From contig CAKUMB010000001.1 in NCBI GenBank assembly GCA_934667475.1, forward strand, positions 279,397 through 343,396: 64,000 nucleotides of DNA, read 5' to 3'. A program made the position numbers and the translations under genes. This stretch comes from an uncultured Muribaculaceae bacterium. Its GTDB lineage: Bacteria > Bacteroidota > Bacteroidia > Bacteroidales > Muribaculaceae. Position 1 is the first letter of the stretch. Each line of letters starts with the position of its first letter. The notes beneath the pieces were generated by a model, which was not told the origin of the DNA, did not search any database, and saw nothing but the letters and a program-made list of their open reading frames with translations. Below are positions 6,102 through 62,041 of this stretch, piece after piece.

Positions 6102-6137
6102 GCCATCGGGCCGGCATTAGGCTGATAACAACCATAG

Positions 6138-19110: not shown

Positions 19111-19129
19111 TACAAGAAAGGAACTTATT

Positions 19130-19591: not shown

Positions 19592-19619
19592 AATTGCGTA
19601 ACTGGGAAAAAACTTAATT

Positions 19620-20102: not shown

Positions 20103-20217
20103 TGCAATTTTTGGTGGGGGCGGCTCGTTAGTAATGTGGTGGCACGATGTTTGCATTTGCTATGGTTGTATGCAATCATCACGCTATGTTTAATTCATAA
20201 AAAAAGAGACAGGCCGT

Positions 20218-20559: not shown

Positions 20560-20675
20560 CGCCACAGCGGCTGCGGGTAGCAGCCCGGGCGGTGAATTGG
20601 GTGCGGCCTTTTTTGCCAGTGCTCTTAAATTGCCGTATCTTTGCCACAGAAAACAATCAAGACACATACACTATA

Positions 20676-45573: not shown

Positions 45574-45779
45574 AAACGTGTTGTTTTAAAATTATTGTTA
45601 GTGTTAATGTGTTAATCGTGCCGCAAATATACAAAAAAAGATTAAAAGCGCCCAACCAATAGGGCTTAAATTGTTCCCGCGCGATCACGTATGCGTGCGC
45701 GCACGAAAAAAACGCTGATGCTATTCCGGTGTAACGGAGTGTGCATCAGCGCTATAAGAGATATAAAGCAGTTTCTCTA

Positions 45780-46826
45780 TTATTGTTCTTTTATAAGGAA
45801 TATTTCGGTGGGGAAGTGGTCGCTGTAGCCGTTGAGAAACACTCCGCCCGAGTAGGTGCGCAGCGGGTAGCCCTTGCGGTCGCCCTCCTGTGTCTTAAGG
45901 AAGTCGCGGTTGAGCACGTCAGCTCGCATGAATGTGAGCCGTGGCTTGTCGTTGCCCTTGTAGTGCTGCATGAAATATTGCGAAATCACTATTTGGTCAA
46001 ACAGGTTCCACTGTCCCTTGTAGGCCAGTGTGCCTATGCCCTTGTCAAGCTTGTCCCACCAGGGGTTGTAAAGGTCGCCGGGCTGCTTCACATCGGCCGC
46101 GTTGCGCTTGCCGCCAAGGGCCTCTGCCACGCTCTTGTCCATGGGGTCGTCGTTGAGGTCGCCCATGAATATTATGCCCTGGTTGGGGTCATCGCGCAGC
46201 AGCGAGTCGATGGTGCGCCGTGCCATGGCAGCTGCTGCCTCGCGCAAATAGCTCGAGCGCTCCTGTCCGCCCAGGCGCGACGGCCAGTGGTTCACTATCA
46301 CACTCACCTTTTCGCCGGCCAGCATGCCCGTCACGCACATCTGGTCGCGGGTGCGGAAGCTGTCATAGCCCGGAATGTGCAGCGTGGTGTTCACCACATT
46401 CAGCACGCGAAACAGGCGCGGGTTGTAGAGCAGCGCCACGTCGATGCCGCGGCGGTCGGGGCTGTCGTGGTGCACTATCTGCATGTGCCAGTCCTTGATT
46501 TCGGGCTGTCTCACGAGGTCTTGCAGCACGCTCTTGTTTTCCACCTCGCTCACGCCCACTATGGCGGGGCCCATTGGGGTGTGCTTGGTCTTCATCTGGC
46601 TAATGGCGTAGGCCATGTTGTGCTGCTTCGACCAGTATTTCTGGCCGTTCCATTTGCGTGCACCGTCGGGGGTGAACTCACTGTCATACTTGCCGTTGTT
46701 GTTGATGGTGTCGAACATGTTCTCCAAGTTGTAGAACATCACCCCATACACTCCATATCGCTTCTCGGCGCTTATGGCAGCGGTGGCCAGCAGTGCGGCC
46801 ACTATCACCAGCATTATCTTCTTCAT
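45780..46826 (-). CDS. endonuclease/exonuclease/phosphatase (EEP) family protein
   Basis: 348 aa with a signal peptide. EEP motifs are present (N-terminal YNLENMFD, C-terminal SDHFP). Confidence 0.8.
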   Translation of the reverse strand: MKKIMLVIVAALLATAAISAEKRYGVYGVMFYNLENMFDTINNNGKYDSEFTPDGARKWNGQKYWSKQHNMAYAISQMKTKHTPMGPAIVGVSEVENKSVLQDLVRQPEIKDWHMQIVHHDSPDRRGIDVALLYNPRLFRVLNVVNTTLHIPGYDSFRTRDQMCVTGMLAGEKVSVIVNHWPSRLGGQERSSYLREAAAAMARRTIDSLLRDDPNQGIIFMGDLNDDPMDKSVAEALGGKRNAADVKQPGDLYNPWWDKLDKGIGTLAYKGQWNLFDQIVISQYFMQHYKGNDKPRLTFMRADVLNRDFLKTQEGDRKGYPLRTYSGGVFLNGYSDHFPTEIFLIKEQ

Positions 46827-47967: not shown

Positions 47968-48879
47968 GTGCACGGCTATGAGCCCGACGGCGTCACGCCC
48001 AGCGACAAAGAGCTTATGCTGTATGTGGTGTCGCGCGACGAAACTGGCGGACTGGTGGTGCAGGCCGTGAATGGCAAAAACATCGACAAGGGTGTGAACT
48101 GCGTGCCCTCGATAGCCAAGGGGAGCACCCTGATTAGGATGGGGCGCGCGGCCAGCGAGCTCGATGTGATGTCGCCGCAGTTCGAGGCACTGCCCACCAA
48201 GGCGCAGAACTATTGCCAAATATTCAAAATGCAAATTGAACAGAGCACCCTCATGCGCATGGCCAACAAAGAGGTGCAGTGGAACATGAGCGACCAGGAG
48301 GAGGCCGCCATCTACGACATGCGACTGGGCATGGAAAAGAGCTTCCTTTTTGGCGTGAAGCGCTCGCTGTGGGACAATGTGCGCAAGCAGACGCTGCTGT
48401 TCACGGGCGGCATCTGGTACCAGGCCGGCAAGACGTGGAACTACGATGACTCGTCGCTGACGCAAGACAGCATCATCGACATGATGCGCGAGGCTTTCAC
48501 AGGCAACGCGGGCAGCAAGCGCAAAATCCTGATTGGCGGCTCGGGTCTCATTGGCCGGCTCAACAAGCTCGACTACAGCAAGGTGATAACCTCGCGCGAC
48601 ACCGTGAGCAAGTGGGGCATCGACTTCAATGAGCTGCGCTCGAAGTTTGGCACGCTTTATGTGATGCTGAGCGAGGTGTTCGACGAGTGCGGCATGGCCG
48701 ACAACGGCATAGTCATCGACCCCGAATATATGCAGAAGTACAGCCACGTGCCTTTCAGCACCGAGGCTCTCAACCTAAAGGCCAGCGGTGTGCGCAATGT
48801 CGACGCCCTAGTGCTCACCGAGGCCAGTTGCCTGGTGCTGCGCTACCCTAAGGCCCACATGCGCATCATCATGCAGTAG
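47968..48879 (+). CDS. hypothetical protein (downstream segment; GTG start directly after the amber codon, or readthrough/pseudogene)
   Basis: 303 aa in the same frame as 47467-47964. There is no ATG until about 48016. A hairpin terminator follows at 48931-48975. Confidence 0.55.
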   Translation: MHGYEPDGVTPSDKELMLYVVSRDETGGLVVQAVNGKNIDKGVNCVPSIAKGSTLIRMGRAASELDVMSPQFEALPTKAQNYCQIFKMQIEQSTLMRMANKEVQWNMSDQEEAAIYDMRLGMEKSFLFGVKRSLWDNVRKQTLLFTGGIWYQAGKTWNYDDSSLTQDSIIDMMREAFTGNAGSKRKILIGGSGLIGRLNKLDYSKVITSRDTVSKWGIDFNELRSKFGTLYVMLSEVFDECGMADNGIVIDPEYMQKYSHVPFSTEALNLKASGVRNVDALVLTEASCLVLRYPKAHMRIIMQ

Positions 48880-48992: not shown

Positions 48993-50069
48993 TCACTCCA
49001 TGTTCTGCTCAATCCACTGTTCGGGTTGCGGGTTGAAGCGTATTTTGCCGGGATCAATGGCCAGGCGATAGATTTCGCCGCGCTTGCCGGCTATCGCATA
49101 CGGGTTTTCGCCATTGGCTTCGGGCCACTTCACCGTGCGCGCCACAATGCGGTTGATTTTGCTCAGTGCCTGGTTGCGCAGTTCGGTGCTGCACATATAT
49201 TGCTCCACCTTTCGCATGGCTTCGGCCCGCGGGCAGTCTTTCAGACAACTGTAGATGGCGGCCAGCTCTCTGGAGTGGTCCACAAGGTCTTTGAGTCGCA
49301 CGCCCTCGGGGTGGCGCATGAAAAACATATACAGCATTTTCTGTATGCACGACATTTTCAGCTCCACCTCATCGTAGTCGGGCAGAATTATCTTGAAGTC
49401 GTTGTTCACCACAATGGGGCTTTCCATCGTGGGAGAGATTACTATTTTTCCTATAAGGGCTTTGCGAAGCTTTTCGGTGGGGTCGCTGTGGGTGCGCAAA
49501 ATGTATTCGGTAATCAGGCTGCGCAGCTGGTCTTCGAGCTTTTCATACTCCTCATCGATTTCATGCTCTTGAGCCATCTCTTGGTAGTCGCCATGTGGCG
49601 GCGCGGCGCAAAAGCTGAATCCCTTCTTCGAGCGGATTGGCGCATGGCTGTAGTCATAGTCGTCTATAAAAACAGCAAGCCTTCGTCGTAAATCGCTGTA
49701 GTCGACGATGTCATCGCATTGGTCCAGCCTGTCCACATACACCTCTTTGTCGCCGACCTGGGTGTCGAAAATGTCGGTGGATTGGGTCAGCAATTCTTCC
49801 GACAAACAATCAACCGCCGTCCCCATGGAGCCATGCAAGTGTCGCACGCGTATGCTCAGTTTGGCGTCGTGCCCTATGTTCACAACGTTGAAGCGCTTCG
49901 TCTCAACGCTTATGTCATAGTCTCTGGGCCGCTTGTCGACCACAATCTGTGGCTTGGCCTGCCCTAGCAGGGAGTCGCTGTGCAGGTGGCTGCGCAGCTC
50001 GTTGGCTATTCGCTCGCTGCTTACGCGTATGGTCACCGTTGGGTTTAGTGATTCGTTTGTCGTTGTCAT
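48993..50069 (-). CDS. hypothetical protein (partner of upstream vWA gene)
   Basis: 358 aa with no recognisable motifs. It is co-oriented with the vWA gene and 45 bp downstream of it. Confidence 0.55.
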   Translation of the reverse strand: MTTTNESLNPTVTIRVSSERIANELRSHLHSDSLLGQAKPQIVVDKRPRDYDISVETKRFNVVNIGHDAKLSIRVRHLHGSMGTAVDCLSEELLTQSTDIFDTQVGDKEVYVDRLDQCDDIVDYSDLRRRLAVFIDDYDYSHAPIRSKKGFSFCAAPPHGDYQEMAQEHEIDEEYEKLEDQLRSLITEYILRTHSDPTEKLRKALIGKIVISPTMESPIVVNNDFKIILPDYDEVELKMSCIQKMLYMFFMRHPEGVRLKDLVDHSRELAAIYSCLKDCPRAEAMRKVEQYMCSTELRNQALSKINRIVARTVKWPEANGENPYAIAGKRGEIYRLAIDPGKIRFNPQPEQWIEQNME

Positions 50070-50114
50070 AAAAGAAGCTGTAGTGTTATGCTTTGTTTGT
50101 GTTATATGCGGTTT

Positions 50115-50834
50115 TCAGCGCTTAAAGAATCGTTTGTTGCGTGAGCGCTTCTGCATTATCCTTTCTTCGTCGCTCATCGACTCGTCGAGCATGAAAGCAA
50201 CCTGGTCGTTGGTCCAATCTTTGCTGCAATAGCATAAGCGAACGGCCATGTCTTTTACACCCGATTCCGACTTTTCGAATTCAATCGCGTTGTCGATCGA
50301 GAGGCCGTAGGCCACGCTTTCCACATCGTGGTCGGCGCCCATGTAGGCAAACATCCATCCCTCATTTTTATACGCCTCGACAAGGGCTTTTATTGCCTTG
50401 CGTGAGAATTCTTTCGACGCATTCTCATATCCGTCGGTGATGATGGTCACCTGCACCAAGGCGTTTTTGTTGTCGCCCACTATTTCGTGAAGTCGTGTGA
50501 TGCTGTTGCCCATGGCGTCGTAGAGTGGCGTCATGCAGCATGGACGGTAGTCCTTCATCGCCAGTGGCTTGGCCTCTTCTACTGGTGTGTTGTCGTAAAT
50601 CGTCTGCAGTGAGCACCCGCAGAATGCCACAAGCGTCACCATCGATTTCTCGTTGGCCTTGTGGGTCTGCTGGCGTGCGCGAATGCTGCCAATGGTTTCA
50701 TTCACTGCATCCACGGCATATTTGCGAATGCTGCCCATCGACCCGCTGCGGTCAAGAATGATGAGGTTGTAGTTGGTGATCACTTTTTCCTCTGCGGCTT
50801 TGCTGCCTGCTGCTGTGTTGTTGTTCTCGTTCAT
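50115..50834 (-). CDS. von Willebrand factor type A (vWA) domain protein, TerY-like size
   Basis: 239 aa. It has a canonical MIDAS (LIILDRSGSMGS), with the downstream T and D residues conserved (ITDGYEN). Confidence 0.8.
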   Translation of the reverse strand: MNENNNTAAGSKAAEEKVITNYNLIILDRSGSMGSIRKYAVDAVNETIGSIRARQQTHKANEKSMVTLVAFCGCSLQTIYDNTPVEEAKPLAMKDYRPCCMTPLYDAMGNSITRLHEIVGDNKNALVQVTIITDGYENASKEFSRKAIKALVEAYKNEGWMFAYMGADHDVESVAYGLSIDNAIEFEKSESGVKDMAVRLCYCSKDWTNDQVAFMLDESMSDEERIMQKRSRNKRFFKR

Positions 50835-51041
50835 TTCAGTCGTGTTTTAATTAGAGTTAAAGTTAACTAAGACTGGTCGTCAATAGTTTTGTGAAGTTCA
50901 CGTTGCAAAGTTACGCTGCCCATCACCTGGCGTGCATTTTTTGCAACCTTGCAAAGGCCTGTGTTTTGGTTTCTGTGCAAATAACGTGCCAGAATGGCAT
51001 GATGTTGTATGAGACTATGATAAAATGTGAAAAATATGTGC

Positions 51042-51049
51042 TAACTTTG
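51042..51049 (+). promoter_or_regulatory. candidate -7 promoter motif TAacTTTG upstream of GH20 gene
   Basis: TAACTTTG at 51042-51049, about 39 bp upstream of ATG 51088, in an AT-rich intergenic region. Confidence 0.3.
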
Positions 51050-51087
51050 CTATATTCATTAATAAAAACTAATATGCATATTAACTA

Positions 51088-52740
51088 ATGAATAAGTTTC
51101 TGCGCTTAACTGCTGTTGCGGTGATGGCCGCCATGGGCATGTGTGCAGCCATGGCCACCGACTACTACGCCCGCCGAATCACCGAAATCATTCCGCAGCC
51201 CGTGGCCTGCGACATCGACACCGCCGCACCGCCATTCGAGCTGTCGCGCTCCACCTTGGTCTACTGTGCCGGCCGTGGGGCTGAGACCAGTGCCCGCTAT
51301 TTGGCCGACTACACGTCGCGCTATTTGGGTCTGCCCATAGGCATTGTGCAAAAATCGCCGATGAAACCGTGCATTTCGCTCATCAACCGCAATAATCACG
51401 GCACCCCTGGCGGCTATTCGCTCACCATCGACCCCGACATGGGCGTGGTGGTTGACGGCAACGACGAGCAAGGCGTGTTCTATGGTGTGCAGACGCTGAT
51501 TCAGCTGCTGCCGACGCGTGCTGGGGTGGTGCCTGCACTGCCGGCGGCGCGCATATCCGACTATCCTCGCTTTGCCTACCGGGGAATGCACCTCGATGTG
51601 GTGCGCCACTTCTTTCCCGTGGAGTTTGTGAAGCGCTACATTGACTGGCTTGCACTGCACAAGATGAACTACTTCCACTGGCACCTCACCGACGACCAGG
51701 GCTGGCGCATCGAGCTTAAGAGCCACCCCGAACTCACCGCCAGCGCTTCGCAGCGCGCGGGCGAAATCGAGGGCGTGTTTCCCGGCCGCTACAGGCCGCT
51801 GCCCTATGGCGGATACTACACCCAGCAGCAAATAAAGGAGGTGGTCGACTATGCGGCCAGCCGCTATGTGACCGTGGTGCCCGAAATCGACGTGCCCGGC
51901 CACTGCATGGCTGTGCTTGCCGCGCATCCCGAGTTCAGCACCACTCCGCAACTTCCAAAGGCCACAGCGCAAACGTGGGGGATCTACAACCGCCAGAACA
52001 ATGTGCTTGCGCCCACTCCCGAAGTATTTAAGTTCCTCTCCGATGTGTTCAACGAGGTGTGCAGCCTGTTTCCCGGCCAATACATACACGCTGGTGGCGA
52101 CGAGTGCGCTCCGCGGTGGTGGAAGGAGAGCGAACTCACGCAGCAGTTTATAAAAGACCACGGATTAATCGACGAAAACGGCCTTCAGCGCTATTTCATG
52201 GACTACGTGAAGCGCATAGTCAACTCACACGGCAAGACCATGATAGGGTGGAACGGAGGCATTGAGCAGTGCGACAGTGCCGGAGCGGTGGTGATGAACT
52301 GGCATCACCGCTCGGGTGTGAGCGCTAAAAAGCTCACACCCGGCCACCGCACCATCGTGGCCCCCGGCCGCTGGTTTTACTTCGATTACATCGAAGATTC
52401 CACGCAGCAAATGGTGATGTCGGGCCGCCAGCAACTGCTCACGGTGAAAATGGTGTATGACTTCAACATAGTGCCCGACTCGGCCACGGCCAGCCAGGCC
52501 CAGCTCATAATTGGCGCCGAGGGCTGCATGTGGACCGAGTATGCCCCGGCACCGTGGAAGGTGGAGACGCTGGTGTTTCCCCGCCTGGCCGCACTGTGCG
52601 AGAATGTGTGGAGCCAGCGCCGCGACTGGGACGACTTCAAGCGCCGCCTGGTGCGTCAGAGCGAGCGCTACGACCTGTGGGGCATACGCTACAATCCGGC
52701 CGTGTTTCATGCCGAGCCAGCCGACCCGCGCTATCGCTGA
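51088..52740 (+). CDS. beta-N-acetylhexosaminidase (GH20)
   Basis: 550 aa with a signal peptide. The GH20 catalytic region is HLDVVRHFF...HWHLTDDQGWRIE, and the catalytic D-E pair is in GGDE. A TAacTTTG -7 motif lies upstream. Confidence 0.9.
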   Translation: MNKFLRLTAVAVMAAMGMCAAMATDYYARRITEIIPQPVACDIDTAAPPFELSRSTLVYCAGRGAETSARYLADYTSRYLGLPIGIVQKSPMKPCISLINRNNHGTPGGYSLTIDPDMGVVVDGNDEQGVFYGVQTLIQLLPTRAGVVPALPAARISDYPRFAYRGMHLDVVRHFFPVEFVKRYIDWLALHKMNYFHWHLTDDQGWRIELKSHPELTASASQRAGEIEGVFPGRYRPLPYGGYYTQQQIKEVVDYAASRYVTVVPEIDVPGHCMAVLAAHPEFSTTPQLPKATAQTWGIYNRQNNVLAPTPEVFKFLSDVFNEVCSLFPGQYIHAGGDECAPRWWKESELTQQFIKDHGLIDENGLQRYFMDYVKRIVNSHGKTMIGWNGGIEQCDSAGAVVMNWHHRSGVSAKKLTPGHRTIVAPGRWFYFDYIEDSTQQMVMSGRQQLLTVKMVYDFNIVPDSATASQAQLIIGAEGCMWTEYAPAPWKVETLVFPRLAALCENVWSQRRDWDDFKRRLVRQSERYDLWGIRYNPAVFHAEPADPRYR

Positions 52741-52899
52741 GAGGCACGGGTGCAACTGTTTTGTGCCGGTGCAGCGTCGAATAATTAAGTGTCTGGTGGT
52801 CGCGTTTGCTTTTTTTAACGCCAAATCAAATCCCGCACCGCACTTTATCGATAAATTTGCTATTTAATATATAGTATGCAACACAATTCGGCAATCAAG

Positions 52900-54363
52900 A
52901 TGAAATCAACATTGCGACTTTTGACTATTGCGGCCGTGGCTCTGATGGCTCTGCTGGGCGCCACTGCGTGCGGCGGACGCGGCGGCGCACTCGACAAGGC
53001 CATCCGTTCGGCCATGATTAGCGGCGACACCACCCGCAAGGCCTACGATGGCATTTGCCAGCTGATAAAGGACAACCCCGACAAGTATGCCGCCTATCTC
53101 ACCGACGGTGGGCAAATCAACGTTGAAGAGCTGGCCAAGAAAGTGACTGAGGTGGGCCACAGCCTGCGTCCGCCTGTCGACTGGGACATAACCCGCTATG
53201 GCGCAGCCAGCCTCACACTCACGGTGTATTTCGAGCGCAGCGGCTCAATGGTGCCCTACGATAGCCGCTCGGGAGGCGGCCAGCTGAAGGCGGCCGTCAA
53301 CGACCTGATTAACGCCTTCCCGTCGCACTCGGCTGTGAAAATCAACATAGTGAACGATAACATATATCCCTACAGCGGCACCGTCGATTCGTTTCTGCAA
53401 GACCGCGACATCTATGCCAGCACCGCCGGCACGGGCGATGCCAGCCACACCGACTTCAAGCTGATTTTCGACAAAATCATCAGTGCCCAGCCGGCCAACA
53501 ATGTGAGCATCCTGGTGACCGACATGATTTATTCGCCTGCCGACACCCACGATGTGAGCGTGGAGAAAATATTTCACGAGGAAAATGGCGTGGCCGCATC
53601 TATATTCCGCAACCACAATGGCAAGTCGGTGATAGTGAGCCAGCTGATGGGTGACTACGACGGCAAGTATTACCCTTACAACGGCCAGCCGTTTGACTAC
53701 CACGGCAAGCGTCCCTTCTACCTTATTGTGATAGCCGACGCCAAGACCATCGACCAGATGGCTGCCGACCCGGCGTATGCTGCCGTGGTGCATCCTGCCG
53801 CTGCTGTCAACACCTATCGCTTCAACCAAGGCGAGGCCCAGGTGGCCTTCAAGGTGATACCCGACTGGAAGGACAATGCCGGCCGCTTCCGCGTGTCGCA
53901 CGACGATCCGCACTTGCTCACCGGCTGCACCCCTGACCGCACCACGGGCAAGCTGCGCTTCAGCCTGGCCGCCAACCTTGGTGCGCTGCAAAAGGATGCT
54001 GCGTTTTTTGCCAACGGGTCGCACTTCGCAGTGCGCTCGCTCAATGGCTTCGACGTTGCAGTCAGGCCCATCGGACAGTCCGACCTCAGTGCCAACAACA
54101 AAGCCTACCTCGACGGCATGACACACATAATCACCCTCACGGGAAAGATGACCTCGCCGCAAGACGATGTGACTATTTCCATCGACAACGACTTTCCGCA
54201 GTGGATAACGGCCTCTACGGCCACCGACGACACCAATCCCTCGGCGTCTGGCTTCGCCACCACCACGTTTGGCCTCGACAGCTTTATGCGCGGTATCTAC
54301 AGCGCGTTTGCTGGTGGCAACACCCGCTACTACACCAAAATTGAACTGAAACTGAAAAATTAA
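52900..54363 (+). CDS. vWA-like domain lipoprotein (divergent MIDAS ExSGS)
   Basis: About 487 aa with a lipoprotein signal (LLGATAC). LTLTVYFERSGSMVPY resembles the vWA beta1-MIDAS segment, with E in place of D. It is the first gene of the tight seven-gene operon. The ORF track starts at 52876. Confidence 0.65.
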   Translation: MKSTLRLLTIAAVALMALLGATACGGRGGALDKAIRSAMISGDTTRKAYDGICQLIKDNPDKYAAYLTDGGQINVEELAKKVTEVGHSLRPPVDWDITRYGAASLTLTVYFERSGSMVPYDSRSGGGQLKAAVNDLINAFPSHSAVKINIVNDNIYPYSGTVDSFLQDRDIYASTAGTGDASHTDFKLIFDKIISAQPANNVSILVTDMIYSPADTHDVSVEKIFHEENGVAASIFRNHNGKSVIVSQLMGDYDGKYYPYNGQPFDYHGKRPFYLIVIADAKTIDQMAADPAYAAVVHPAAAVNTYRFNQGEAQVAFKVIPDWKDNAGRFRVSHDDPHLLTGCTPDRTTGKLRFSLAANLGALQKDAAFFANGSHFAVRSLNGFDVAVRPIGQSDLSANNKAYLDGMTHIITLTGKMTSPQDDVTISIDNDFPQWITASTATDDTNPSASGFATTTFGLDSFMRGIYSAFAGGNTRYYTKIELKLKN

Positions 54364-54375
54364 CATCAAACGAAT

Positions 54376-54825
54376 ATGCAAAAAGACACAATCTATCTCA
54401 CAGCCGGCATTGTGGTCACAGTGCTGTTCTGGCTGCTGCGCGTGCAGCTGATTGAACTGGTGTACACTGCCCCTGGCTATAGCGACAACATGTATAACCT
54501 GGGCATCTACGACACCGTGGCCATGGTAATCACCGCCGTGGCGTGGGTGGGCGCAGGCATTTACTATTATGTGATTAATTCAGTCCGCTTTGACCGCTGG
54601 TGGCATTGGCTGGCTGTGCTGGCCGTGGTGGCCGTGCTCACTCCAGTGGTGTGCTACAGTGTCAACACCAGCGTGTTCAGCGACAACGGCGGCATCAGCT
54701 ATCCCGCCGAGACGGCCGCGTTCCAAACGGCCACGGTGCTCTACTCGGTGCTGATGTTTGTGGTGGCGTCATTCTCCATTCGCTGGTGGAGCAGCAACTG
54801 CCGCCACACCCCAATACCGCAATAA
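54376..54825 (+). CDS. small polytopic membrane protein (4 predicted TM)
   Basis: 149 aa with four hydrophobic segments. Separated by 12 bp from the previous gene. Confidence 0.6.
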   Translation: MQKDTIYLTAGIVVTVLFWLLRVQLIELVYTAPGYSDNMYNLGIYDTVAMVITAVAWVGAGIYYYVINSVRFDRWWHWLAVLAVVAVLTPVVCYSVNTSVFSDNGGISYPAETAAFQTATVLYSVLMFVVASFSIRWWSSNCRHTPIPQ

Positions 54826-54864
54826 CCCCGTTAATAAGAAAATCCTCACAATAGAGAGAAAGCA

Positions 54865-56397
54865 ATGAGACTATTCATATTTGCAATAGGCGGCACCGGC
54901 TCAAGGGTGCTGAAGTCGCTGCTGATGCTGTCGGCCGCTGGTGTGCGCCCGGTTGGCCCCGACGGCAAACCGGTGCCCAATCTCGAACTGGTGCCCATCA
55001 TCATCGACCCCCACAAGAGCAACGCCGACCTCAAGCGCACCGAAACGCTGCTGAGCGCCTACCGCATGCTGCGCCGCCAAATTCATGGCGACGAGGTGAA
55101 CGCCAGCGGCTTTTTCGCCGCCAAGATATCCACTTTGCGCGACATCATGCAGGGCTCGCCCGTGCCGCTCGACGACTCGTTTATATTCAACATGGCCGCC
55201 GTGGGCAGCAAGAAGTTCCGCGACTTCATTTCCTACGACACCATGAATGAGCCCAACCAGGCGCTCACCTCGCTGCTCTTCGCCGACTATCAGCTTGAGA
55301 ACAAAATGAGCATCGGCTTCGTGGGCTCGCCCAACATAGGCAGTGTGGCGCTCAACGGCATAAAGGACAGCAACGAGTTTAAGGCGTTTACCAGCGTCTT
55401 TGCCGACGGCGACCGCATATTCTTCATAAGCTCGATATTCGGTGGCACTGGCGCAGCCGGTTTCCCCATATTGGTGAAAAACATACGCCAGGCTGCTGGC
55501 GCCGACATCAAAAACCGCGCCTTCCTGCAGACGGCCCCCATAGGCGGCCTCACTATGCTGCCCTATTTCAGCCTGATGCAGAGCGACGACAGCAGCGACC
55601 GCCGCATTGCCAGCAGCGACTTCATAGTGAAAACCCAGTCGGCGCTGGAATACTACAACCAAACCATCACGGGCGACAGCGGCAGTCAGGTGAACGCCAT
55701 CTACTACCTCGGCGACCACGGCCACGACGCCCCCTACAAATATGATCCGGGCGACAAGCAGGACCAGCACGACCCGGCCCACCTGGTGGAGTTGGTGGGC
55801 GCACTGGCCCCGCTCAACTTTGCCGGCCTGCCCGCCGACCAGCTTGTTGACCCCGTCACACGCGCGCCGCTACCCACCAAGGCCTTTGAGTATGGCCTCG
55901 ACGACGACACCGACGACGTGTGCTTTGCCTCGTTGGGCAAGCAGACGCGCGACCTGGTGTATGAGAGCATGGTGAAGTTTCACCTGCTGTTCATATTCCT
56001 GCGCACGGGCTTCAGCGGCATGATAGGGCAGGGCTTCACCGAAGACGCACCCAAAATCACGCGCGACTTCACCGCCACGCAGTTCTACCGCACCCTCACC
56101 GACTCGTTTTTTGGCGGCTACACCGAGTGGCTGAGCGAGCTCAAGTTCAACCGCCGCCACGTGGAGCCGTTCTGCAGCGGCGTGTTCGACATGACCAGCG
56201 CCATCAAGGGCGTGCACACACGCAAGGGCTTCTTCGGTGCCAAAACGGTGAACTGCGACACCTTTAAGAGCGAGATGAACAAGCTTAGCCGCGACAATCA
56301 CGACTACGCGGGCCGCACGCTGGAGTTCAAACTCATGGATTTGTTTAACAAGGCCGCAGCCAAGATAATTGCCGAGCGCTACGACAACATCAACTAA
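54865..56397 (+). CDS. FtsZ/tubulin-superfamily GTPase-like protein (divergent; Tubulin_2/FtsZl-like)
   Basis: 510 aa. The N-terminus has a T1-like glycine loop (MRLFIFAIGGTGSRV). A T4-like signature (RIFFISSIFGGTGAAGFPILVKNI) follows about 185 aa later and is comparable to FtsZ FIAAGMGGGTGTGAAP. A long C-terminal extension is present. It is not the canonical ftsZ. Confidence 0.72.
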   Translation: MRLFIFAIGGTGSRVLKSLLMLSAAGVRPVGPDGKPVPNLELVPIIIDPHKSNADLKRTETLLSAYRMLRRQIHGDEVNASGFFAAKISTLRDIMQGSPVPLDDSFIFNMAAVGSKKFRDFISYDTMNEPNQALTSLLFADYQLENKMSIGFVGSPNIGSVALNGIKDSNEFKAFTSVFADGDRIFFISSIFGGTGAAGFPILVKNIRQAAGADIKNRAFLQTAPIGGLTMLPYFSLMQSDDSSDRRIASSDFIVKTQSALEYYNQTITGDSGSQVNAIYYLGDHGHDAPYKYDPGDKQDQHDPAHLVELVGALAPLNFAGLPADQLVDPVTRAPLPTKAFEYGLDDDTDDVCFASLGKQTRDLVYESMVKFHLLFIFLRTGFSGMIGQGFTEDAPKITRDFTATQFYRTLTDSFFGGYTEWLSELKFNRRHVEPFCSGVFDMTSAIKGVHTRKGFFGAKTVNCDTFKSEMNKLSRDNHDYAGRTLEFKLMDLFNKAAAKIIAERYDNIN

Positions 56398-56408
56398 CCA
56401 CTTCTGCA

Positions 56409-59400
56409 ATGAGTAAAATTCTGTCATATAACAATAAGACCACCAAGACGGCCGACCGCGACTGGATTCCTGTTGAGCCGTATGACGACGATGACATAAA
56501 AGCCATACGCGACCCCAACGGCGGCATGTCGGAAAATCCGCACACCGCCATTCCCAGCCCGTTTGCGCAACTCGACCTTGTGAAAAACGCCTTTGCCCAC
56601 CTTGCGGCAAGCATCAGCCTTGCCGGCACCATGATGGACAAGCGCCTTGTGTCGACCGCCCTCGATGTGGCCCAGCTGCTGTTCAACTACGAGAGCCACC
56701 GCGACTATCTGCACATAGTGCGCTGGAACCGCGATGAGCAGATAGCGCGCCTCAAGAGCGAGCCCGAGCACCGCCTGTATGGCGACACACTCGACCTGTT
56801 TCTGCTCAGCGACACCAAGTATAACTTTAATCTGCTCACCGACTGGTATATAGTTATGTGGCACAACCGCGTGATTGGCGCCACATCGCCGTCATCGTTC
56901 ACAATGGGAGTGCCGCGCGAAAGCGAGGAGCCCATAGGCGACATAATGGTGGAGCAGGGTGTTCCGCTCTTTGCCGCCGACACGCGTCACTTGTGGCAGC
57001 GCGACGCCGACTTCGTGCGCATGATGTATTTGCTGTTCAACGCCTATCCCGTGTTGCGCAAGTCGCTCACCGAGGTGTATGCCTACATGATTCGTAACCT
57101 CGACCCCATCCGCCAGCAGCGCCCCGAACTTTATGCCAGCCTTGTGGCTGCGGTCCCCAACATGGAGTCGTTCAGCCCCGAGACCGCCGACCGTGTGCTC
57201 GAACAGCTCGAAATGGACTACGACCCGTTTGCGGGCGACAACGAGATTACGCTGCTGGGCGCACGCCTTTATCACAAGCGCGCCGCCGACATAATGCGCG
57301 ATGTGGCTCAAAGCGACTTCATGCTTGCGCCCACGCTGCCGCAGCCTGCCGGCACGCGGCTGCCGCTGGTGTTGCGCACGGGCTTCAGCGGCAGCGCCGA
57401 CGCTTACAAATATGTCGACCGCCAGTGGAATAGCGCCACCGAGGTGCTTGCCGCGGGCGTTCCCATCGACCGGCGCAAGCTGCCCGACACGGCGGTGGAA
57501 TACCCGTTTGTCACCACATCCGACCTGCTCACGCCGTCGTTGGTGCGGCTTAGCGGACCGCTCGATGGCCACCACTACTTCGACGGCAACGCCAGCGGCC
57601 GTGGTGCGGAGGCCGAATATGGCTATCTGCTGCCTCTCACACCGCTGTTTTTCAAATATTTCACCGCGGCCGACCTGTGTGGCAAGGTGTGTGGGCGCAA
57701 CATGCTCGACATCGAGGAACGCACCGGCGGCGTGACGGTGACTCTGCGCATTCCTGTGCGCAAGCGCTGCATTGAGTTCACACGCAACTACCACGTTGTC
57801 ACCGACCCCGCCTGGACGTTCGACGAACGCCGCGGCAGTGGCCGCCTGGTGACCGACGCTGTGATGAGTGCAGCTGTGTTCCCGTTTGTCAAAACTGGCC
57901 AGGCCGACGGCTACACCGTGCAGCTCTTTGCCATGGGTGCGAGCTGCGGCAGCAGCCTACAGTTCTATGCCAACGGACTGGACTCCGACTCCATTGGCGT
58001 CAGCAGCCGCTTGCGGACAAATTCCACATATTCCACCGAATACTTCGACGTGAAGGGCTCTTTCGACCTTGTCGAGGCCCGTGTCAACACCGCTTCGGCC
58101 GGCACCTGCAGCGGCTTCATAGTGCCGCGCTGGCAGCCATATGCGCCGGGCTCGCGCCAACTGGTGTTTGCCGTTGACTTCGGTACCACCAACAGCCACC
58201 TCGAGTGGGCCGAGCGCGGTCATCAGAGCGAGCCGCTCGACTTTGGCTTCTGCGACGGCTCCACGCTCATTGCCCCGCTGCTCAAGCGCGGCTCGCTGCT
58301 CATTGCCGAGCAGCTGCAGCGCATCGAGTTCCTACCCAGTGCCATCGACAGCGTGTATGGCTTCCCGCTGCGCAGCGCACTGGCCAGCAATGCCGTCAAC
58401 GACGGCGGCACACGCCTGTGGAGCAACGTCAACATCCCGTTCCTCTACGAGCGCCAGTATTTCGACGGCTATGATGTGGCCACCAACCTCAAGTGGAAGG
58501 GCGACACCGCACTCAGCCGCGAGTTTCTGCGCGAGCTGGCCTTGCTCATCCGTGCCAAGGCGCTCATCGAGAATGCCGACCTTGGCAAGACCGATGTGGT
58601 GTATTTCTTCCCTGTGAGCATGGGCGGCAGCGACCGCCGCAAGCTGCAAGACACCTGGGAGGAGCTCTATCGCACCTATATCGGGCCCGACACCGACAAT
58701 CTGCACGCCTATCCCGAGTCGATAGCCCCGGCATACTACTACAAGGGTGCCGATGTGGCCGGGTCGAGTTTCGTGACCATCGACATTGGTGGCGGCACGA
58801 GCGACACGGTGATATATCAGCCCACGCCCGACCGCCTCGACAGTGTGCCTGTGGCGGTGTCGTCGTTCCGCTTTGCGGGCAACGCCATATTCGGCGACGC
58901 CTTCACCGAGCGCGATGCCGACAACAACCCACTAATTGCGCACTATGCCGAATACTTCAGCCGCCTGGTCACCAAGAATCCCGACATCACCTATCTCAAC
59001 AGCATATTGCAGTCGGTGCTCAAGCAAAAGCGGTCGGAAGACGTCAACGCTTTCCTATTCTCAGTCGAGAATGTGGAGCAGCTGCGTCAGCTGCAGGAGG
59101 TGGACCGCAACCTGTATAGCTACGACGCGCTGCTGCGCAACGACGACCAGCGCAAGCTGGTGTTTATGTATTTCTACGCTGCCATCATCTACTACACGGC
59201 GCAGTCGATGCTGGCGCGCGGCTACGAGCCGCCCAAGCAAATCTACTTCAGCGGCACCGGCTCGAAGATATTGAGCATATTGGGCACCACGCAGCAGGTG
59301 CGTGAGTTCACGCAGCGCATCATCGAGGAGGTGATGCAGAAGCGTTACACCGAACCGTTCGACATCAAGGTGGAGCGCGAGTGTCCCAAGCAGGTCACTT

Positions 59401-59846
59401 GCCGCGGCGGTGTGCGGCTTGAAAATGAGCGCCTCGACCACAAGGCCGACACCAGCGCCTATTCGGCCCGCAACATCAACCGCCTAAAGTACTGCTTCTC
59501 GATGATAGGCAGCGAAAGCCTCACCTACGGCCAGGTCAACCAGCTCGACACACGCGGCCGCATTGCCGACAGTGTGCGCGAGTTCAACCGCTTCTTCTTG
59601 TCGCTGTGCGACAATGAGACCAAGGATGAGTTTGGCATCGAGGGCAAAGTGTTCCGCCTGTTTGCCAGCGTGGTCAACAACGGCCTTGACAACTACCTCA
59701 CCGCCGGCATCAACAGTTTCTTGAAGGGCCGCTACGAGGAGGCCGATGTGGTGGAAGATGTGCCGTTCTTCTATCCTGTGATAGGTGTCATCCGCTACAA
59801 TCTGCTTAAAAACCTGTGCAACGAGGTGATCTCTAATATACAATGA
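56409..59846 (+). CDS. large protein with uncharacterised N-terminal ~580 aa and C-terminal Hsp70/actin-like (ASKHA) ATPase domain
   Basis: 1145 aa. Three ASKHA motifs appear in canonical order. Phosphate-1 is VFAVDFGTTNSHLEW (aa ~589; compare DnaK IGIDLGTTNS). Phosphate-2 is VTIDIGGGTSDTVIY (aa ~790; compare FDLGGGTFD). The adenosine/connect-2-like motif is IYFSGTGSKI (aa ~944; compare VGGSTRIP). 12 bp separate it from the FtsZ-like gene. Confidence 0.75.
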   Translation: MSKILSYNNKTTKTADRDWIPVEPYDDDDIKAIRDPNGGMSENPHTAIPSPFAQLDLVKNAFAHLAASISLAGTMMDKRLVSTALDVAQLLFNYESHRDYLHIVRWNRDEQIARLKSEPEHRLYGDTLDLFLLSDTKYNFNLLTDWYIVMWHNRVIGATSPSSFTMGVPRESEEPIGDIMVEQGVPLFAADTRHLWQRDADFVRMMYLLFNAYPVLRKSLTEVYAYMIRNLDPIRQQRPELYASLVAAVPNMESFSPETADRVLEQLEMDYDPFAGDNEITLLGARLYHKRAADIMRDVAQSDFMLAPTLPQPAGTRLPLVLRTGFSGSADAYKYVDRQWNSATEVLAAGVPIDRRKLPDTAVEYPFVTTSDLLTPSLVRLSGPLDGHHYFDGNASGRGAEAEYGYLLPLTPLFFKYFTAADLCGKVCGRNMLDIEERTGGVTVTLRIPVRKRCIEFTRNYHVVTDPAWTFDERRGSGRLVTDAVMSAAVFPFVKTGQADGYTVQLFAMGASCGSSLQFYANGLDSDSIGVSSRLRTNSTYSTEYFDVKGSFDLVEARVNTASAGTCSGFIVPRWQPYAPGSRQLVFAVDFGTTNSHLEWAERGHQSEPLDFGFCDGSTLIAPLLKRGSLLIAEQLQRIEFLPSAIDSVYGFPLRSALASNAVNDGGTRLWSNVNIPFLYERQYFDGYDVATNLKWKGDTALSREFLRELALLIRAKALIENADLGKTDVVYFFPVSMGGSDRRKLQDTWEELYRTYIGPDTDNLHAYPESIAPAYYYKGADVAGSSFVTIDIGGGTSDTVIYQPTPDRLDSVPVAVSSFRFAGNAIFGDAFTERDADNNPLIAHYAEYFSRLVTKNPDITYLNSILQSVLKQKRSEDVNAFLFSVENVEQLRQLQEVDRNLYSYDALLRNDDQRKLVFMYFYAAIIYYTAQSMLARGYEPPKQIYFSGTGSKILSILGTTQQVREFTQRIIEEVMQKRYTEPFDIKVERECPKQVTCRGGVRLENERLDHKADTSAYSARNINRLKYCFSMIGSESLTYGQVNQLDTRGRIADSVREFNRFFLSLCDNETKDEFGIEGKVFRLFASVVNNGLDNYLTAGINSFLKGRYEEADVVEDVPFFYPVIGVIRYNLLKNLCNEVISNIQ

Positions 59847-59847
59847 T

Positions 59848-60666
59848 ATGGAACTTACGAAAATCAAGAGAACGATAATTGCCGCGGTGCTTGCGCTTGC
59901 CACGGTGCTCGGCGCTGCAGCGCAGACCGACACGGTGGCAAGTGCAGAGCCTGTCAATCCTGTTGGCAGTGCCGATTCGGCCGCGGCCGTGCTGCCACCC
60001 GACACTGTGGCCGCCGTGCCGCCTGCCAAGGAGGCTCAGCCCGCCGCCGACCGCACTCGCGACTTGATGGCCGGCTGCACCCTGGCCGCCCTTGTGCTTG
60101 GCTTGGCCGGCACGGTGATGGCCATGTCGGCCCGCCGCCGCGTGCGCGAAACGCAATCGGCCATCAACACTTGTGCCGAGCGCATCAATGAGCTCGTCAA
60201 CGCCGTTACAGCCCTTAATGCCGACGTCGAGCACCTCAGCGCCGAGGTCGATGGCCTGCGCCGCCAGCCGCTGCAGCCTGCGCCGGCCCGTAAGCCTGCC
60301 GTGTGCAAACCGCCACGGGCCACAGCGGCCCCGGCCGCGCAGCACCCGCAGGTGTTGTATCTCAGTTGTCCCGATGCCGAAGGCTACTTTGGCCGTGCTA
60401 CGGCCAGTGCCGTGGCTGGCAACTCGGTGTTTGTGCTGCGCACCACCGACGGCCGCACCGGCACGTTTGGCGTGATTGACGATGCCGCCGTGCACAGCAT
60501 GGCGCTGATGATGCCCACCGCCACGCTCACTGGGGCTTGCGCCGGCACCGGCATACAGGTGTCTGGCCATGCGCGCCGCATAGTCACCGACCAGCCGGGC
60601 ACCGCCGTGCTCAAGGGTGGCAGGTGGCACGTTGAGACTAAAGCCGTAATTCACTACGAACCATAA
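59848..60666 (+). CDS. bitopic membrane protein with coiled-coil segment
   Basis: 272 aa. A signal/TM region is followed by a second TM (LMAGCTLAALVLGLAGTVMAM), a coiled-coil (INELVNAVTALNADVEHLSAEVDGLRRQ), a P/A-rich linker and a C-terminal domain. The start is 2 bp after the previous stop. Confidence 0.55.
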   Translation: MELTKIKRTIIAAVLALATVLGAAAQTDTVASAEPVNPVGSADSAAAVLPPDTVAAVPPAKEAQPAADRTRDLMAGCTLAALVLGLAGTVMAMSARRRVRETQSAINTCAERINELVNAVTALNADVEHLSAEVDGLRRQPLQPAPARKPAVCKPPRATAAPAAQHPQVLYLSCPDAEGYFGRATASAVAGNSVFVLRTTDGRTGTFGVIDDAAVHSMALMMPTATLTGACAGTGIQVSGHARRIVTDQPGTAVLKGGRWHVETKAVIHYEP

Positions 60667-61205
60667 TGAAGTGCTATTGTCCTAAATGCGGGCGCAAGAT
60701 AGAGGTCACCGCCCAGGAGGCTGCGCGCCTTGGCGGACACCTTGTGTGCCCGCAGTGCCTGGCGCGCGTTGATGTGGCTGTGCCAAAGCCCACGGCTGCG
60801 GCAGTTGCCGAGCCGCCTGCCACCCCCAAGCCGCGCCAGCAGGCTCAGGCTCCTGCGGCAGGAGGCCGCTTCTGCCCCAAGTGCGGGGCCAAGGTGCGTG
60901 CCACCGATGCCTTCTGCAAGTCGTGCGGGGCGAGTCTGGGCGCAACGCGGCGCAAGTCGGATGTGGGCACGCCGCCGCCATACCGCAGTCAGCGCCGTGC
61001 AGCCGCACCGGCTCCTGCCTACCGCGCACCGCGCACCGTCGCGCGCCCGTCAGTGCCGCGCCAGGCCTTTGCGCGTCGCCCGTCCAGTAGAAGTGAAGCC
61101 AAAGCTTCCACTTCCGTTGGCGGACTGGGCTGCATGTGGCGCACCGCCGTGGGCGTGGCCGTTGCCTTTGCGCTCTATGCGATGCTTGGCCTGGCCTTTC
61201 AGTAG
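60666..61205 (+). CDS. MJ0042-type zinc-ribbon protein with C-terminal TM anchor
   Basis: 179 aa. The N-terminal CPKCGRK...CPQC zinc ribbon is followed by a second CPKCGAK...CKSCG ribbon, a P/A-rich linker and a C-terminal TM. Its start overlaps the previous stop. Confidence 0.6.
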   Translation: MKCYCPKCGRKIEVTAQEAARLGGHLVCPQCLARVDVAVPKPTAAAVAEPPATPKPRQQAQAPAAGGRFCPKCGAKVRATDAFCKSCGASLGATRRKSDVGTPPPYRSQRRAAAPAPAYRAPRTVARPSVPRQAFARRPSSRSEAKASTSVGGLGCMWRTAVGVAVAFALYAMLGLAFQ

Positions 61206-61250
61206 AACCGATAAAGTAAGAAACACCCTAATTTTTCCCCAGTAACAACG

Positions 61251-61853
61251 ATGAAGATAACTTGCCCGAAATGCGGATATGTGACCGAGATTTCCGAGAG
61301 CGAACTCAGCGCCGTCAATCACACAATCGTGTGCCCGCAGTGCATGTCGCAGCTTAAGGTGGATGGCGACTATGCCTATATTCCCACCGACAGCCAGACG
61401 TTTGACCCGCAGCCCGAACCGCCTGCCGCCGAGGTGGAGCGCGAGCCGTGCGACGACGGCAATGGCGGCTGGGTGGCCGCCGACGGGGTCGACGACCCTC
61501 TGATGGCCGATGCCATCGAATACATTAAGATGTGCAATGCCATATCGGTGCCAATGCTGCAGCGCTATCTGCAAATCAGTGCCGACCGCGCTGCCCAGCT
61601 CATGAAGCAGCTCGAGCAGAAAGGGGTGGTGGGCCCATACACGGGCGGACCGCGCACCATTCTAATTCCGCACAGCAGCGACCCCTTCGCCCCCACGCCG
61701 CGCAACCGCGCCGAAACGCAAATGCTCAGAGAGTTGCGCCAGCGCATGGCCAGTGGCGATGCCAAGACGCGCATGTTCAACTGCTCGGGCTGCTCCATTG
61801 TGCTGTTTGGACTGCTGGTCGTCCTTCTGTTGGCGCAATTGTGTACGCATTAA
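61251..61853 (+). CDS. zinc-ribbon protein with FtsK-gamma-like winged-helix and C-terminal TM anchor
   Basis: 200 aa. The N-terminal CPKCGY...CPQC is paralogous to the previous ORF. The middle region AIEYIKMCNAISVPMLQRYLQISADRAAQLMKQLEQKGVVGP resembles the FtsK gamma wHTH (…VSxLQRRxRIGYNRAARLIEQME..GIV). The C-terminus carries CSGCS plus a TM. Confidence 0.6.
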   Translation: MKITCPKCGYVTEISESELSAVNHTIVCPQCMSQLKVDGDYAYIPTDSQTFDPQPEPPAAEVEREPCDDGNGGWVAADGVDDPLMADAIEYIKMCNAISVPMLQRYLQISADRAAQLMKQLEQKGVVGPYTGGPRTILIPHSSDPFAPTPRNRAETQMLRELRQRMASGDAKTRMFNCSGCSIVLFGLLVVLLLAQLCTH

Positions 61854-62041
61854 AAACATAAATTAAATTAAACAACCATAAAATAATATAATTTCCACGT
61901 GCTTTTCGGTGCGTTTAACCCGCAGCAAAGGGCGGATGTTTTGCATAATTAATGTGAAATGCCTACCTTTGCACATGAATTGCGACGAGGAGGCTTGACG
62001 GCTTCCTCATTTTTATTTTTTAATAATAGAATTCAACCCGA

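Follow-up and report, generated by a model that had tools for sequence, protein, structure and literature searches.

In a 64,000-nt stretch of DNA from an uncultured Muribaculaceae bacterium (assembly GCA_934667475.1, contig CAKUMB010000001.1, forward strand, positions 279,397–343,396; hereafter the window, whose own numbering is used throughout), we analysed seven consecutive open reading frames (ORFs), g1 to g7, which occupy the plus strand between positions 52900 and 61853 (Table 1). A first-pass annotation of the sequence had placed the ORFs at these positions and read them as one operon that pairs a tubulin/FtsZ-like GTPase with an Hsp70/actin-like ATPase. Our analyses indicate that the operon encodes a conserved pair of a tubulin-like and an actin-like protein together with a lipoprotein and membrane anchors, and that these proteins probably constitute an accessory cell-envelope machine. 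For this purpose, the seven proteins were compared with Pfam, NCBIfam and PADLOC and, by profile searches, with PDB sequences; signal sequences, transmembrane (TM) segments and anchors were read from hydropathy, and the folds of g3 and g4 were assessed by comparing predicted with solved structures.

A tightly packed operon with a five-gene core

Gaps between consecutive genes amount to 12, 39, 11, 1, −1 and 45 nt. A tblastn comparison recovered the same order of g1–g5, mostly followed by g6 and g7, in more than 60 loci at 25–98% identity, in agreement with the proposed packing of all seven genes into one operon. That the ORFs might be an artefact of GC-rich sequence is suggested by the composition of the region, which has 58–63% GC and many long spurious antisense ORFs, so that ORF length alone proves nothing. 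However, all seven are conserved as proteins across many genomes, and they are therefore real genes, with chance excluded as their origin. The exact sequences of all seven proteins are present in public collections (Sodaliphilus and Bacteroidales metagenome-assembled genomes, MAGs), where they are named 'hypothetical protein' throughout except for g6 ('zinc ribbon domain-containing'). None of the seven contains a Walker A (P-loop) motif.

Comparison of the loci showed that the conserved core comprises g1–g5 and that g6 and g7 are an extension of the Muribaculaceae branch; neither was found outside Muribaculaceae loci. The earlier view of a seven-gene unit thus holds insofar as all seven ORFs are real and co-located, while the unit that is conserved consists of five genes.

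At the 5′ end of the operon, g1 has an alternative upstream ATG at position 52876, and public gene calls start at 52900. The −7 element of Bacteroides promoters, with the Bacteroidota consensus TAnnTTTG, has a candidate counterpart in TAAATTTG upstream of g1. A motif with six specified bases is expected about 30 times by chance in the window, and this match is weakly consistent with a promoter.

Table 1 Positions of the operon genes and associated elements in the window, and of related features in other loci (locus identifier before the colon). aa, amino acids.
Feature	Position	Strand	Description
g1	52900–54363	+	Lipoprotein, 487 aa; lipobox LLGATA-C; MIDAS-like motif; putative vWA-like fold
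g2	54376–54825	+	Small integral membrane protein, 149 aa; about four TM segments (hydropathy)
g3	54865–56397	+	Divergent tubulin/FtsZ-superfamily GTPase, 510 aa; N-terminal nucleotide-binding domain, mostly helical C-terminal domain
g4, N-terminal half	56409–58118	+	aa 1–570; conserved disordered peptide, helical region, beta-rich domains
g4, C-terminal half	58119–59846	+	aa 571–1145; ASKHA ATPase with helical insertions (actin/Hsp70/MreB/FtsA superfamily)
g5	59848–60666	+	Membrane protein, 272 aa; signal-like segment, one TM segment, short helical/coiled stretch, C-terminal domain of about 105 aa
g6	60666–61205	+	179 aa; two zinc ribbons, Pro/Arg-rich linker, C-terminal TM anchor
g7	61251–61853	+	200 aa; N-terminal zinc ribbon, FtsK-gamma winged helix, C-terminal TM anchor
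Candidate −7 promoter element TAAATTTG	52852–52859	+	41 nt upstream of the g1 start; read from the sequence
Terminator-like hairpin	61987–62018	+	9-bp stem and T-run; between g7 and rimP, with nusA beyond
ZorA/ZorB-like pair	L073:15903–17803		PADLOC
ZorA/ZorB-like pair	L074:16383–18458		PADLOC
ZorA/ZorB-like pair	L078:17646–21482		PADLOC
ZorA/ZorB-like pair	L079:16173–20171		PADLOC
ZorA/ZorB-like pair	L080:16032–17926		PADLOC
Retropepsin-like protease	L074:18455–18982		
Retropepsin-like protease	L079:20168–20698		
Retropepsin-like protease	L080:17923–18441		
Retropepsin-like protease	L026:8043–8582		
Retropepsin-like protease	L046:15836–16318		
Retropepsin-like protease	L053:16113–16667		
Cyanobacterial array	L082:8505–16788		Gloeothece verrucosa PCC 7822 plasmid NC_014503.1
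Cyanobacterial array	L083:7207–16211		Picosynechococcus plasmid NZ_CP014003.1

The tubulin-like protein g3, the giant protein g4 and their membrane partners

The FtsZ/tubulin-like T1 and T4 loops that the first-pass annotation had pointed out in g3 are real. Across 87 sequences, down to 35% identity, T1 (G9-G10-T11-G12) and T4 (G193-G194-T195-G196-A197-x-G199) are invariant or nearly so, and the T3-like residues (G151-F-x-G154-x-P156-N-I-G159) are invariant; T4 takes the form GGTGAAG, a variant of the signature GGGTG[ST]G, and a T5-like P233-Y-F belongs to the invariant residues as well. In the predicted model, about 205–227 residues align to tubulin/FtsZ structures, with 13–18% identity to FtsZ structures and with TubZ/PhuZ among the structural neighbours. 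These comparisons support a tubulin/FtsZ fold for the nucleotide-binding domain of g3, in which a competent GTP site is predicted. The remainder of the model, residues ~330–510, is mainly helical, lies outside the structural matches and contains no long coiled coil, and neither a T7 loop nor a canonical C-terminal activation domain was identifiable from the structural alignment.

A match to PF13809 or PF00091 had been expected for g3, which by itself stays below both gathering scores: Tubulin (PF00091) reached 12.4 bits against a cut-off of 33 (E 0.19) and Tubulin_2 (PF13809) 10.4 bits against 27 (E 0.37), each over residues 177–237, and searches of NCBIfam, PADLOC and PDB sequences returned no match. 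Searching for the family of g3 yielded 2637 matches in a word-indexed search and, among 1.84 billion cluster representatives (clusters at 50% identity), 1669 at E ≤ 1e-3 and 407 at E ≤ 1e-30; nearly all are 470–520 amino acids long, with a range of 276–528 among the 150 representatives listed. When 76 diverse relatives were scanned at E ≤ 0.01, 63 matched PF13809 (best 8.5e-8) and 61 PF00091 (best 1.8e-7), and some relatives bear a precomputed PF13809 match. In addition, a profile of the family compared with the PDB placed CetZ (3zid) first (E 0.037), followed by FtsZ chains, with the alignment always at the T4 loop.

The claim that the C-terminal part of g4 carries the ASKHA motifs in canonical order was likewise borne out. 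Phosphate-1, connect-1, phosphate-2 and adenosine motifs follow each other in that order, and D590-F-G-T-T-N, P769-E-S-x-A-P, D792-I-G-G-G-x-x-D and S948-G-T-G-S-K are invariant in 45 sequences. Comparison of the predicted model with solved structures revealed a two-lobed RNase-H-like ATPase fold in this half of the protein; actin-like and Hsp70 structures scored equally, the neighbours included ParM/AlfA, and identity to FtsA was 10–14%. The PF00012 match anticipated for this half was not obtained: Pfam HSP70, FtsA and MreB were unmatched by g4, NCBIfam was likewise empty, and the family profile found neither an ASKHA protein nor an Hsp70 among PDB sequences. A cyanobacterial homologue of g4 reaches Pfam FtsA with an E-value of 4.8e-5. 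Downstream of the ATPase, the model contains only helices and no Hsp70 substrate-binding domain. Lacking both this domain and an HSP70 profile match, and with actin-like structures scoring as high as those of Hsp70, g4 does not qualify as a strict-sense Hsp70.

No detectable relative or recognisable family was found for residues 1–570 of g4. Conservation within this half is highest over the first 150 residues (66–69% mean identity), and residues 1–49 are predicted to be disordered, with a predicted local distance difference test (pLDDT) score below 50 for residues 1–25 and 35–49. Within residues 1–60 (positions 56409–56590), W19, Y25, I30, I33, D35-P36 and P44-x-T46-x-I48-P49-S50-P51 are invariant. 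As the N-terminus is both predicted to be disordered and highly conserved, it may serve as a partner-binding peptide. In both g3 and g4, the nucleotide-binding residues are invariant, so that the two proteins, judged by their sequences, probably bind and hydrolyse nucleotide. The two genes are always adjacent, and we take both products to be cytoplasmic because they have neither signal nor TM segments.

Apart from cell division, joint reports of tubulin-fold and actin-fold NTPases come mainly from computational surveys. Since g3 and g4 share folds with FtsZ and with FtsA/DnaK, they could be mistaken for housekeeping ftsZ, ftsA or dnaK genes, from which they had already been set apart on first reading. 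Indeed, their identity to solved relatives is 9–18%, the g3 score for Pfam Tubulin (12.4 of 33 bits) and the missing HSP70, FtsA and MreB matches fall short of these families, NCBIfam is empty for g1–g4, the FtsZ C-terminal domain and the Hsp70 substrate-binding domain are absent, g4 has an extra N-terminal half of 570 residues, and the neighbours are not those of the division and cell wall (dcw) cluster. Profile scores, identities, architecture, context and protein conservation thus already refute a reading of the operon as housekeeping genes or as an ORF artefact, and it deserves practically no weight. The arrangement recalls FtsZ/FtsA in that neighbouring genes encode a GTPase of tubulin fold and an ATPase of ASKHA fold, with membrane tethering implied. 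In contrast to FtsZ/FtsA, however, the gene order is reversed, g4 is three times larger and carries an unrelated N-terminal half, the partners are periplasmic and membrane proteins, and identities are low in the ranges given above for FtsA and FtsZ. The resemblance is one of analogous folds only.

The first-pass annotation had described g1 as a von Willebrand factor A (vWA)-like lipoprotein, of which the lipoprotein part is real and the vWA label could not be confirmed. Its signal peptide ends in the lipobox LLGATA-C, with the Cys invariant or nearly so, and the residues after the Cys are not acidic. In Bacteroidota lipoprotein sorting, non-acidic residues at this place point to a periplasm-facing rather than a surface-exposed protein, which suggests that g1 faces the periplasm rather than the cell surface. 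Sixteen orthologues, with identities as low as 17%, all share residues E112, S114, S116, M117 and D208. These residues belong to a series in which a hydrophobic strand is followed by E-x-S-x-S-M, about 70 residues later by G-x-x-[ST]-D, and then by the invariant Asp, D208, at the end of a second hydrophobic strand. This order matches the metal ion-dependent adhesion site (MIDAS; DxSxS...T...D), but Glu replaces the first Asp; the spacing resembles that of integrin I-domains. No vWA match was obtained for g1 in Pfam, where PF00092/PF13519 had been expected, or in NCBIfam, nor for 17 orthologues in a Pfam scan, and two family profiles compared with the PDB found no vWA protein. A vWA identity of g1 is therefore putative, with a resemblance at the level of the motif. 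On the minus strand nearby (50115–50834), the window encodes a 239-aa protein without a Pfam match that has a classical vWA/MIDAS-like motif, IILDRSGSM; next on this strand comes an ORF of 358 aa (48993–50069) with no detectable family. Aligned with g1 by hhalign, the protein with this motif gave a probability of 6.7%.

The membrane proteins and zinc ribbons of the first-pass annotation were recovered for all four remaining genes. Four hydrophobic segments were found in g2, whose orthologues (131–153 amino acids) lie directly upstream of g3 in all Bacteroidota loci, the position that 4-TM proteins of 156–170 amino acids take on cyanobacterial plasmids. The C-terminal domain of g5, which follows the signal-like segment and the single TM segment, is conserved in nine lineages, with P175, C231, G251, W260 and K265 invariant. 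For g6, Pfam matched Zn_Ribbon_1 (E 6.4e-11) and DZR (E 5e-8), four CxxC pairs are present, and a C-terminal TM segment lies at residues 160–178. Its ribbon has a paralogue at the N-terminus of g7 (30% identity across the N-termini). Residues 81–139 of g7 (positions 61491–61667) match FtsK_gamma (PF09397) at E 1.1e-14, with a score of 54.3 bits that exceeds the cut-off of 30.6, and the protein ends in a TM segment at residues 180–198. By its predicted topologies, the operon encodes an envelope-spanning apparatus, with g1 facing the periplasm, g2 and g5 in the inner membrane and g3 and g4 in the cytoplasm.

Distribution of the core and exchange of peripheral genes

Conservation of the gene neighbourhood, proposed in the first-pass annotation as a check across Bacteroidota and beyond, was observed, with the core recurring in several lineages. 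In 72 Muribaculaceae-type loci, g3 is 58–98% identical to the window copy, except for two loci, in which the values are 50% and 34%. As far as the contigs reach, the genes retain the order g1-g2-g3-g4-g5(-g6-g7), and the flanking genes vary: only in the closest relatives is the cluster bordered by a GH20 gene and rimP-nusA, and elsewhere rimP-nusA is found on the other side or is absent. The family is abundant in gut Muribaculaceae, with single 90% clusters holding up to 3125 member sequences. More distant copies (g3 ~35%, g4 28–29%, g1 20–24% and g2 26–36% identical, g5 recognisable via its C-terminal domain) were detected in Flavobacterium akiainvivens, Niastella caeni, Albibacterium profundi, a Tannerellaceae MAG, two further Bacteroidota genomes and one JGI metagenome contig. 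In Prevotella sp. oral taxon 299 F0039, where g3 is 47% identical, the copy resides on a secondary replicon. A scan of genome contigs with one protein had yielded close Muribaculaceae relatives and a single distant locus; the distant contexts were drawn from contigs that encode homologues and from a plasmid collection.

The context of nine distant loci was compared. Most other Bacteroidota lineages have a ZorA/ZorB-like, proton-driven stator where Muribaculaceae have g6 and g7. Five loci outside the Muribaculaceae (L073, L074, L078, L079 and L080, among them those of Flavobacterium and Niastella) carry two extra genes after g5, the first for a ZorA-like protein of 425–530 amino acids that combines a membrane domain of the MotA/ExbB type with a tail of coiled coil (PADLOC ZorA, E 3.5e-11 to 1e-5) and the second for a ZorB-like, MotB/OmpA-type protein of about 200 amino acids (PADLOC ZorB, E 3e-13 to 4e-11). 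No ZorA or ZorB homologue was found in the window or in any of the 72 Muribaculaceae-type loci. A retropepsin-like aspartic protease (Pfam Asp_protease_2/gag-asp_proteas) with a lipoprotein-type signal often follows the ZorAB-like genes; three Muribaculaceae loci have it too, placed between g5 and g6, and it is missing from the window copy. The additions seen in relatives include an OmpA/MotB-like protein, this protease and an adjacent Ivy gene.

Arrays with a related composition lie on cyanobacterial plasmids, one of them the 47.5-kb mobilisable (MOBP) plasmid of Gloeothece verrucosa PCC 7822, and several Picosynechococcus strains also carry theirs on plasmids. They encode a 4-TM protein of 156–170 amino acids, a tubulin-like protein of 509–511 amino acids, an ASKHA giant of ~1100 amino acids that is homologous to g4, and signal/TM/coiled-coil proteins. 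The tubulin-like protein finds Bacteroidota proteins in phmmer searches with an E-value of 1e-35 and is named 'tubulin-like domain-containing protein' in RefSeq for Gloeothece.

Two loci lack a g4 gene in its usual place. In a 6.8-Mb Bacteroidota genome (L077), g1 and g2 are followed by an insertion sequence (IS) DDE transposase (8971–9945) and g3, and no g4 is present; this copy is decayed and shows that the system is dispensable. In a Muribaculaceae MAG (L057, 11527–20306), more than 9 kb of SpvB-like and RHS/YD-repeat polymorphic toxin genes with small immunity-like ORFs stand directly after g3, in place of g4, which reflects either an insertion or a misassembly. The Flavobacterium akiainvivens cluster (L073) lies directly upstream of Cas9 (18136–21437) and downstream of an HSDR_N protein (6130–7212), and at L078 an EcoR124_C fragment (1538–1765) is located ~6 kb upstream of the cluster. 

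The membrane-tethered FtsK-gamma domain predicted for g7, the TubZ/PhuZ and ParM/AlfA neighbours of g3 and g4, and the plasmid location of the cyanobacterial copies would all fit DNA segregation, positioning or uptake at the membrane, in which g3 and g4 act as TubZ-/ParM-like motors and g7 as an anchored DNA adaptor. However, g7 is confined to Muribaculaceae and the core has no DNA-binding domain, most copies are chromosomal, known partition systems need neither a periplasmic lipoprotein nor a proton-driven stator, and the operon, at ~9–10 kb, is far above the size of known partition loci. Because its DNA-binding component is specific to one lineage, such a role is less likely, and we regard it as improbable. 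An origin as a prophage-encoded PhuZ/TubZ was rejected: unrelated genes stand between the operon and an SU10-type capsid gene in the same window, which does not share the operon's conservation, and no phage-borne homologue of g3 was found. Located 4 kb upstream of the operon, this lone gene encodes an SU10-type major capsid protein (47968–48879; PF17236, E 2e-47), and a Pfam scan of the genes around it (44866–46826 and 48993–52740) gave no phage matches.

Relation to known systems and possible functions

The link to FtsZl1 operons, which had been suggested in the first-pass annotation, stands in part. FtsZl1 (Tubulin_2, PF13809) operons with vWA, OmpA-like and membrane proteins were described as computational predictions only (Makarova & Koonin 2010, PMC2875224), so that an association of FtsZl1 with vWA proteins is documented, whereas g3 is not a canonical FtsZl1. 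Likenesses include a divergent GTPase domain without an identifiable T7 loop or canonical C-terminal domain, membrane and extracytoplasmic partners (putatively vWA-type and, in relatives of our operon, OmpA/MotB-like), weak PF13809 matches among relatives of g3 and, presumably, occurrence besides normal division genes. In addition, the FtsZl1 operon amb2958-2961 of Magnetospirillum magneticum, with two vWA genes, contains a 1626-aa DnaK-like gene (PMC2875224) and thereby has a giant of this kind as well. In contrast, FtsZl1 proteins are ~900–1200 amino acids long, with an FtsZ-like domain at the N-terminus, a long stretch of coiled coil and a helical C-terminal domain (PMC2875224), whereas g3 has 510 residues and no long coiled coil. 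Moreover, g3 is below the PF13809 cut-off and its family matches PF00091 about equally, the obligatory partner is a giant ASKHA protein rather than a recognisable vWA protein or a P-loop GTPase, and the FtsZl1 locus of Bacteroides caccae (PMC2875224) differs in composition. On architecture, Pfam cut-off and the obligatory ASKHA partner, we rejected g3 as a canonical FtsZl1.

DO-GTPase/GAP1 conflict systems include tubulin homologues, HSP70 and extracytoplasmic vWA proteins, and regulated assemblies near the membrane that depend on NTP have been predicted for them (Kaur et al. 2020, PMC7159879). They share with the operon the tubulin-fold and HSP70-fold NTPases, TM components, zinc ribbons and, putatively, a vWA-type protein outside the cytoplasm. 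Their tubulin-containing versions were reported in Firmicutes and Actinobacteria (PMC7159879), whereas the family studied here occurs in Bacteroidota and Cyanobacteria. The operon was rejected as a member, as the defining TRAFAC DO-GTPase and GAP1 core is absent both by motif (no Walker A in the seven proteins) and by Pfam/NCBIfam domain. Zorya anti-phage systems combine a ZorA/ZorB stator with ZorC/D, ZorE or ZorF/G, and a complete system of this kind was rejected as well. The ZorA/ZorB-like stator stands beside a homologous core in five relative loci only and is missing from the window and the Muribaculaceae loci, PADLOC found no equivalent of ZorC, D, E, F or G among g1–g7 or the Flavobacterium g1, g3 and g4, and tubulin-like, ASKHA-giant and lipoprotein partners are not known from the described Zorya types.

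We found no published description of this gene combination or family in the literature searched, the coverage of which is incomplete. The most fitting description of the operon is that of a variant among the FtsZ-like/vWA-type operons, themselves poorly understood; three of its features we did not find reported: the obligate giant ASKHA partner, the link to a ZorAB-like stator, and a spread over Bacteroidota and cyanobacterial plasmids.

For the FtsZl1/vWA/OmpA operons, a role in membrane or envelope remodelling was predicted (PMC2875224), which points towards an accessory cytoskeletal machine for outer-membrane vesicles, local peptidoglycan or envelope remodelling, cell shape or surface structures also in the present case. 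Tubulin- and actin-like proteins would then organise periplasmic partners from the cytoplasmic side, like FtsZ/FtsA and MreB. Such a machine would fit the combination of a lipoprotein and membrane proteins with NTPases of tubulin and actin fold, the periplasmic or peptidoglycan-linked partners in relatives (OmpA/MotB-like protein, retropepsin-like protease, Ivy), the phylum-wide conservation amid mostly metabolic or housekeeping neighbours and the recurrence near rimP-nusA in Muribaculaceae. However, the system looks dispensable and mobile, given the cyanobacterial plasmids and the IS-bearing copy that lost g4, its peripheral genes are swapped between lineages, and the core encodes no peptidoglycan or lipid enzyme. 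The stator, moreover, fits PADLOC ZorA (E 3.5e-11 to 4e-8) better than Pfam MotA_ExbB (E 0.001–0.01). On balance, we consider envelope remodelling rather unlikely, though the main rival of a surveillance or defence role.

The system looks accessory, because it is patchy, plasmid-borne in cyanobacteria, located on a secondary replicon in Prevotella, IS-disrupted once and close to Cas9/HSDR_N or EcoR124_C in two loci. The ZorAB-like stator link and the cyanobacterial plasmid copies shift the balance towards an accessory or conflict role, and a fixed core with exchanged peripheral genes has been regarded as typical of regulated conflict systems (Kaur et al. 2020, PMC7159879). Given this exchange of peripheral genes and a stator of the Zorya type, we favour, tentatively and at somewhat less than an even chance, an accessory assembly, driven by nucleotide and reaching across the envelope, with a role in surveillance or anti-invader defence. 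In such an assembly, g3 and g4 would work as a pair tethered to the membrane, in analogy to FtsZ/FtsA, and their GTP- and ATP-dependent assembly would be held at the inner membrane by g2 and by the cytoplasmic coiled coil and C-terminal domain of g5. It would be coupled to the state of the envelope via the lipoprotein g1, whose MIDAS-like site may bind a ligand; in other lineages, the ZorAB-like stator would supply the coupling, to the peptidoglycan layer and the proton gradient. The nucleotide-driven assembly would form locally at the membrane and, in Muribaculaceae, contact DNA through the tail-anchored g7.

Several observations weigh against a surveillance or defence function. ZorAB-like genes are absent from Muribaculaceae loci, so that the analogy with Zorya reaches the window copy only via homology of the core, and no PADLOC model was matched by g1–g7 or by the Flavobacterium g1, g3 and g4. 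Neither a nuclease nor another recognisable effector was found among the operon proteins, and ordinary metabolic genes, not defence islands, surround most of the nine distant loci. A cell-biological role would likewise be compatible with the conservation across the phylum and with the recurrent location near rimP-nusA in Muribaculaceae. In addition, polymerisation of g3 is doubtful because no T7 loop or canonical C-terminal activation domain was identified. More broadly and with slightly greater reserve, the operon could represent a so far unrecognised, cross-phylum class of machines in which an obligate g3/g4-type pair at the inner membrane is wired to the periplasm by a lipoprotein and small membrane proteins, mostly with a Zorya-type stator, for envelope surveillance or immunity.

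Should the surveillance or defence function hold, it would add a cytoskeleton-type effector to bacterial immunity, and ZorAB-type stators would serve partners beyond ZorC-G, with the operon providing a new class of partner. An obligate g3/g4 pair would represent a second, non-division 'FtsZ/FtsA-like' module. If envelope remodelling is the true role, this would be a new Bacteroidota cytoskeletal system and the first with a tubulin homologue other than FtsZ. Either way, a family of this size provides material for the long-standing question of what FtsZ-like (Tubulin_2-type) proteins do, and it has cultivable carriers in Prevotella sp. oral taxon 299 F0039, Flavobacterium akiainvivens, Niastella caeni and Gloeothece PCC 7822.

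Elsewhere in the window, positions 15176–19110 form an island of low GC content (43–49% compared with ~58%) whose products are a protein weakly similar to SpvB and one of 907 aa with RHS repeats (PF05593, E 4e-21). This island is probably a horizontally acquired polymorphic toxin locus.

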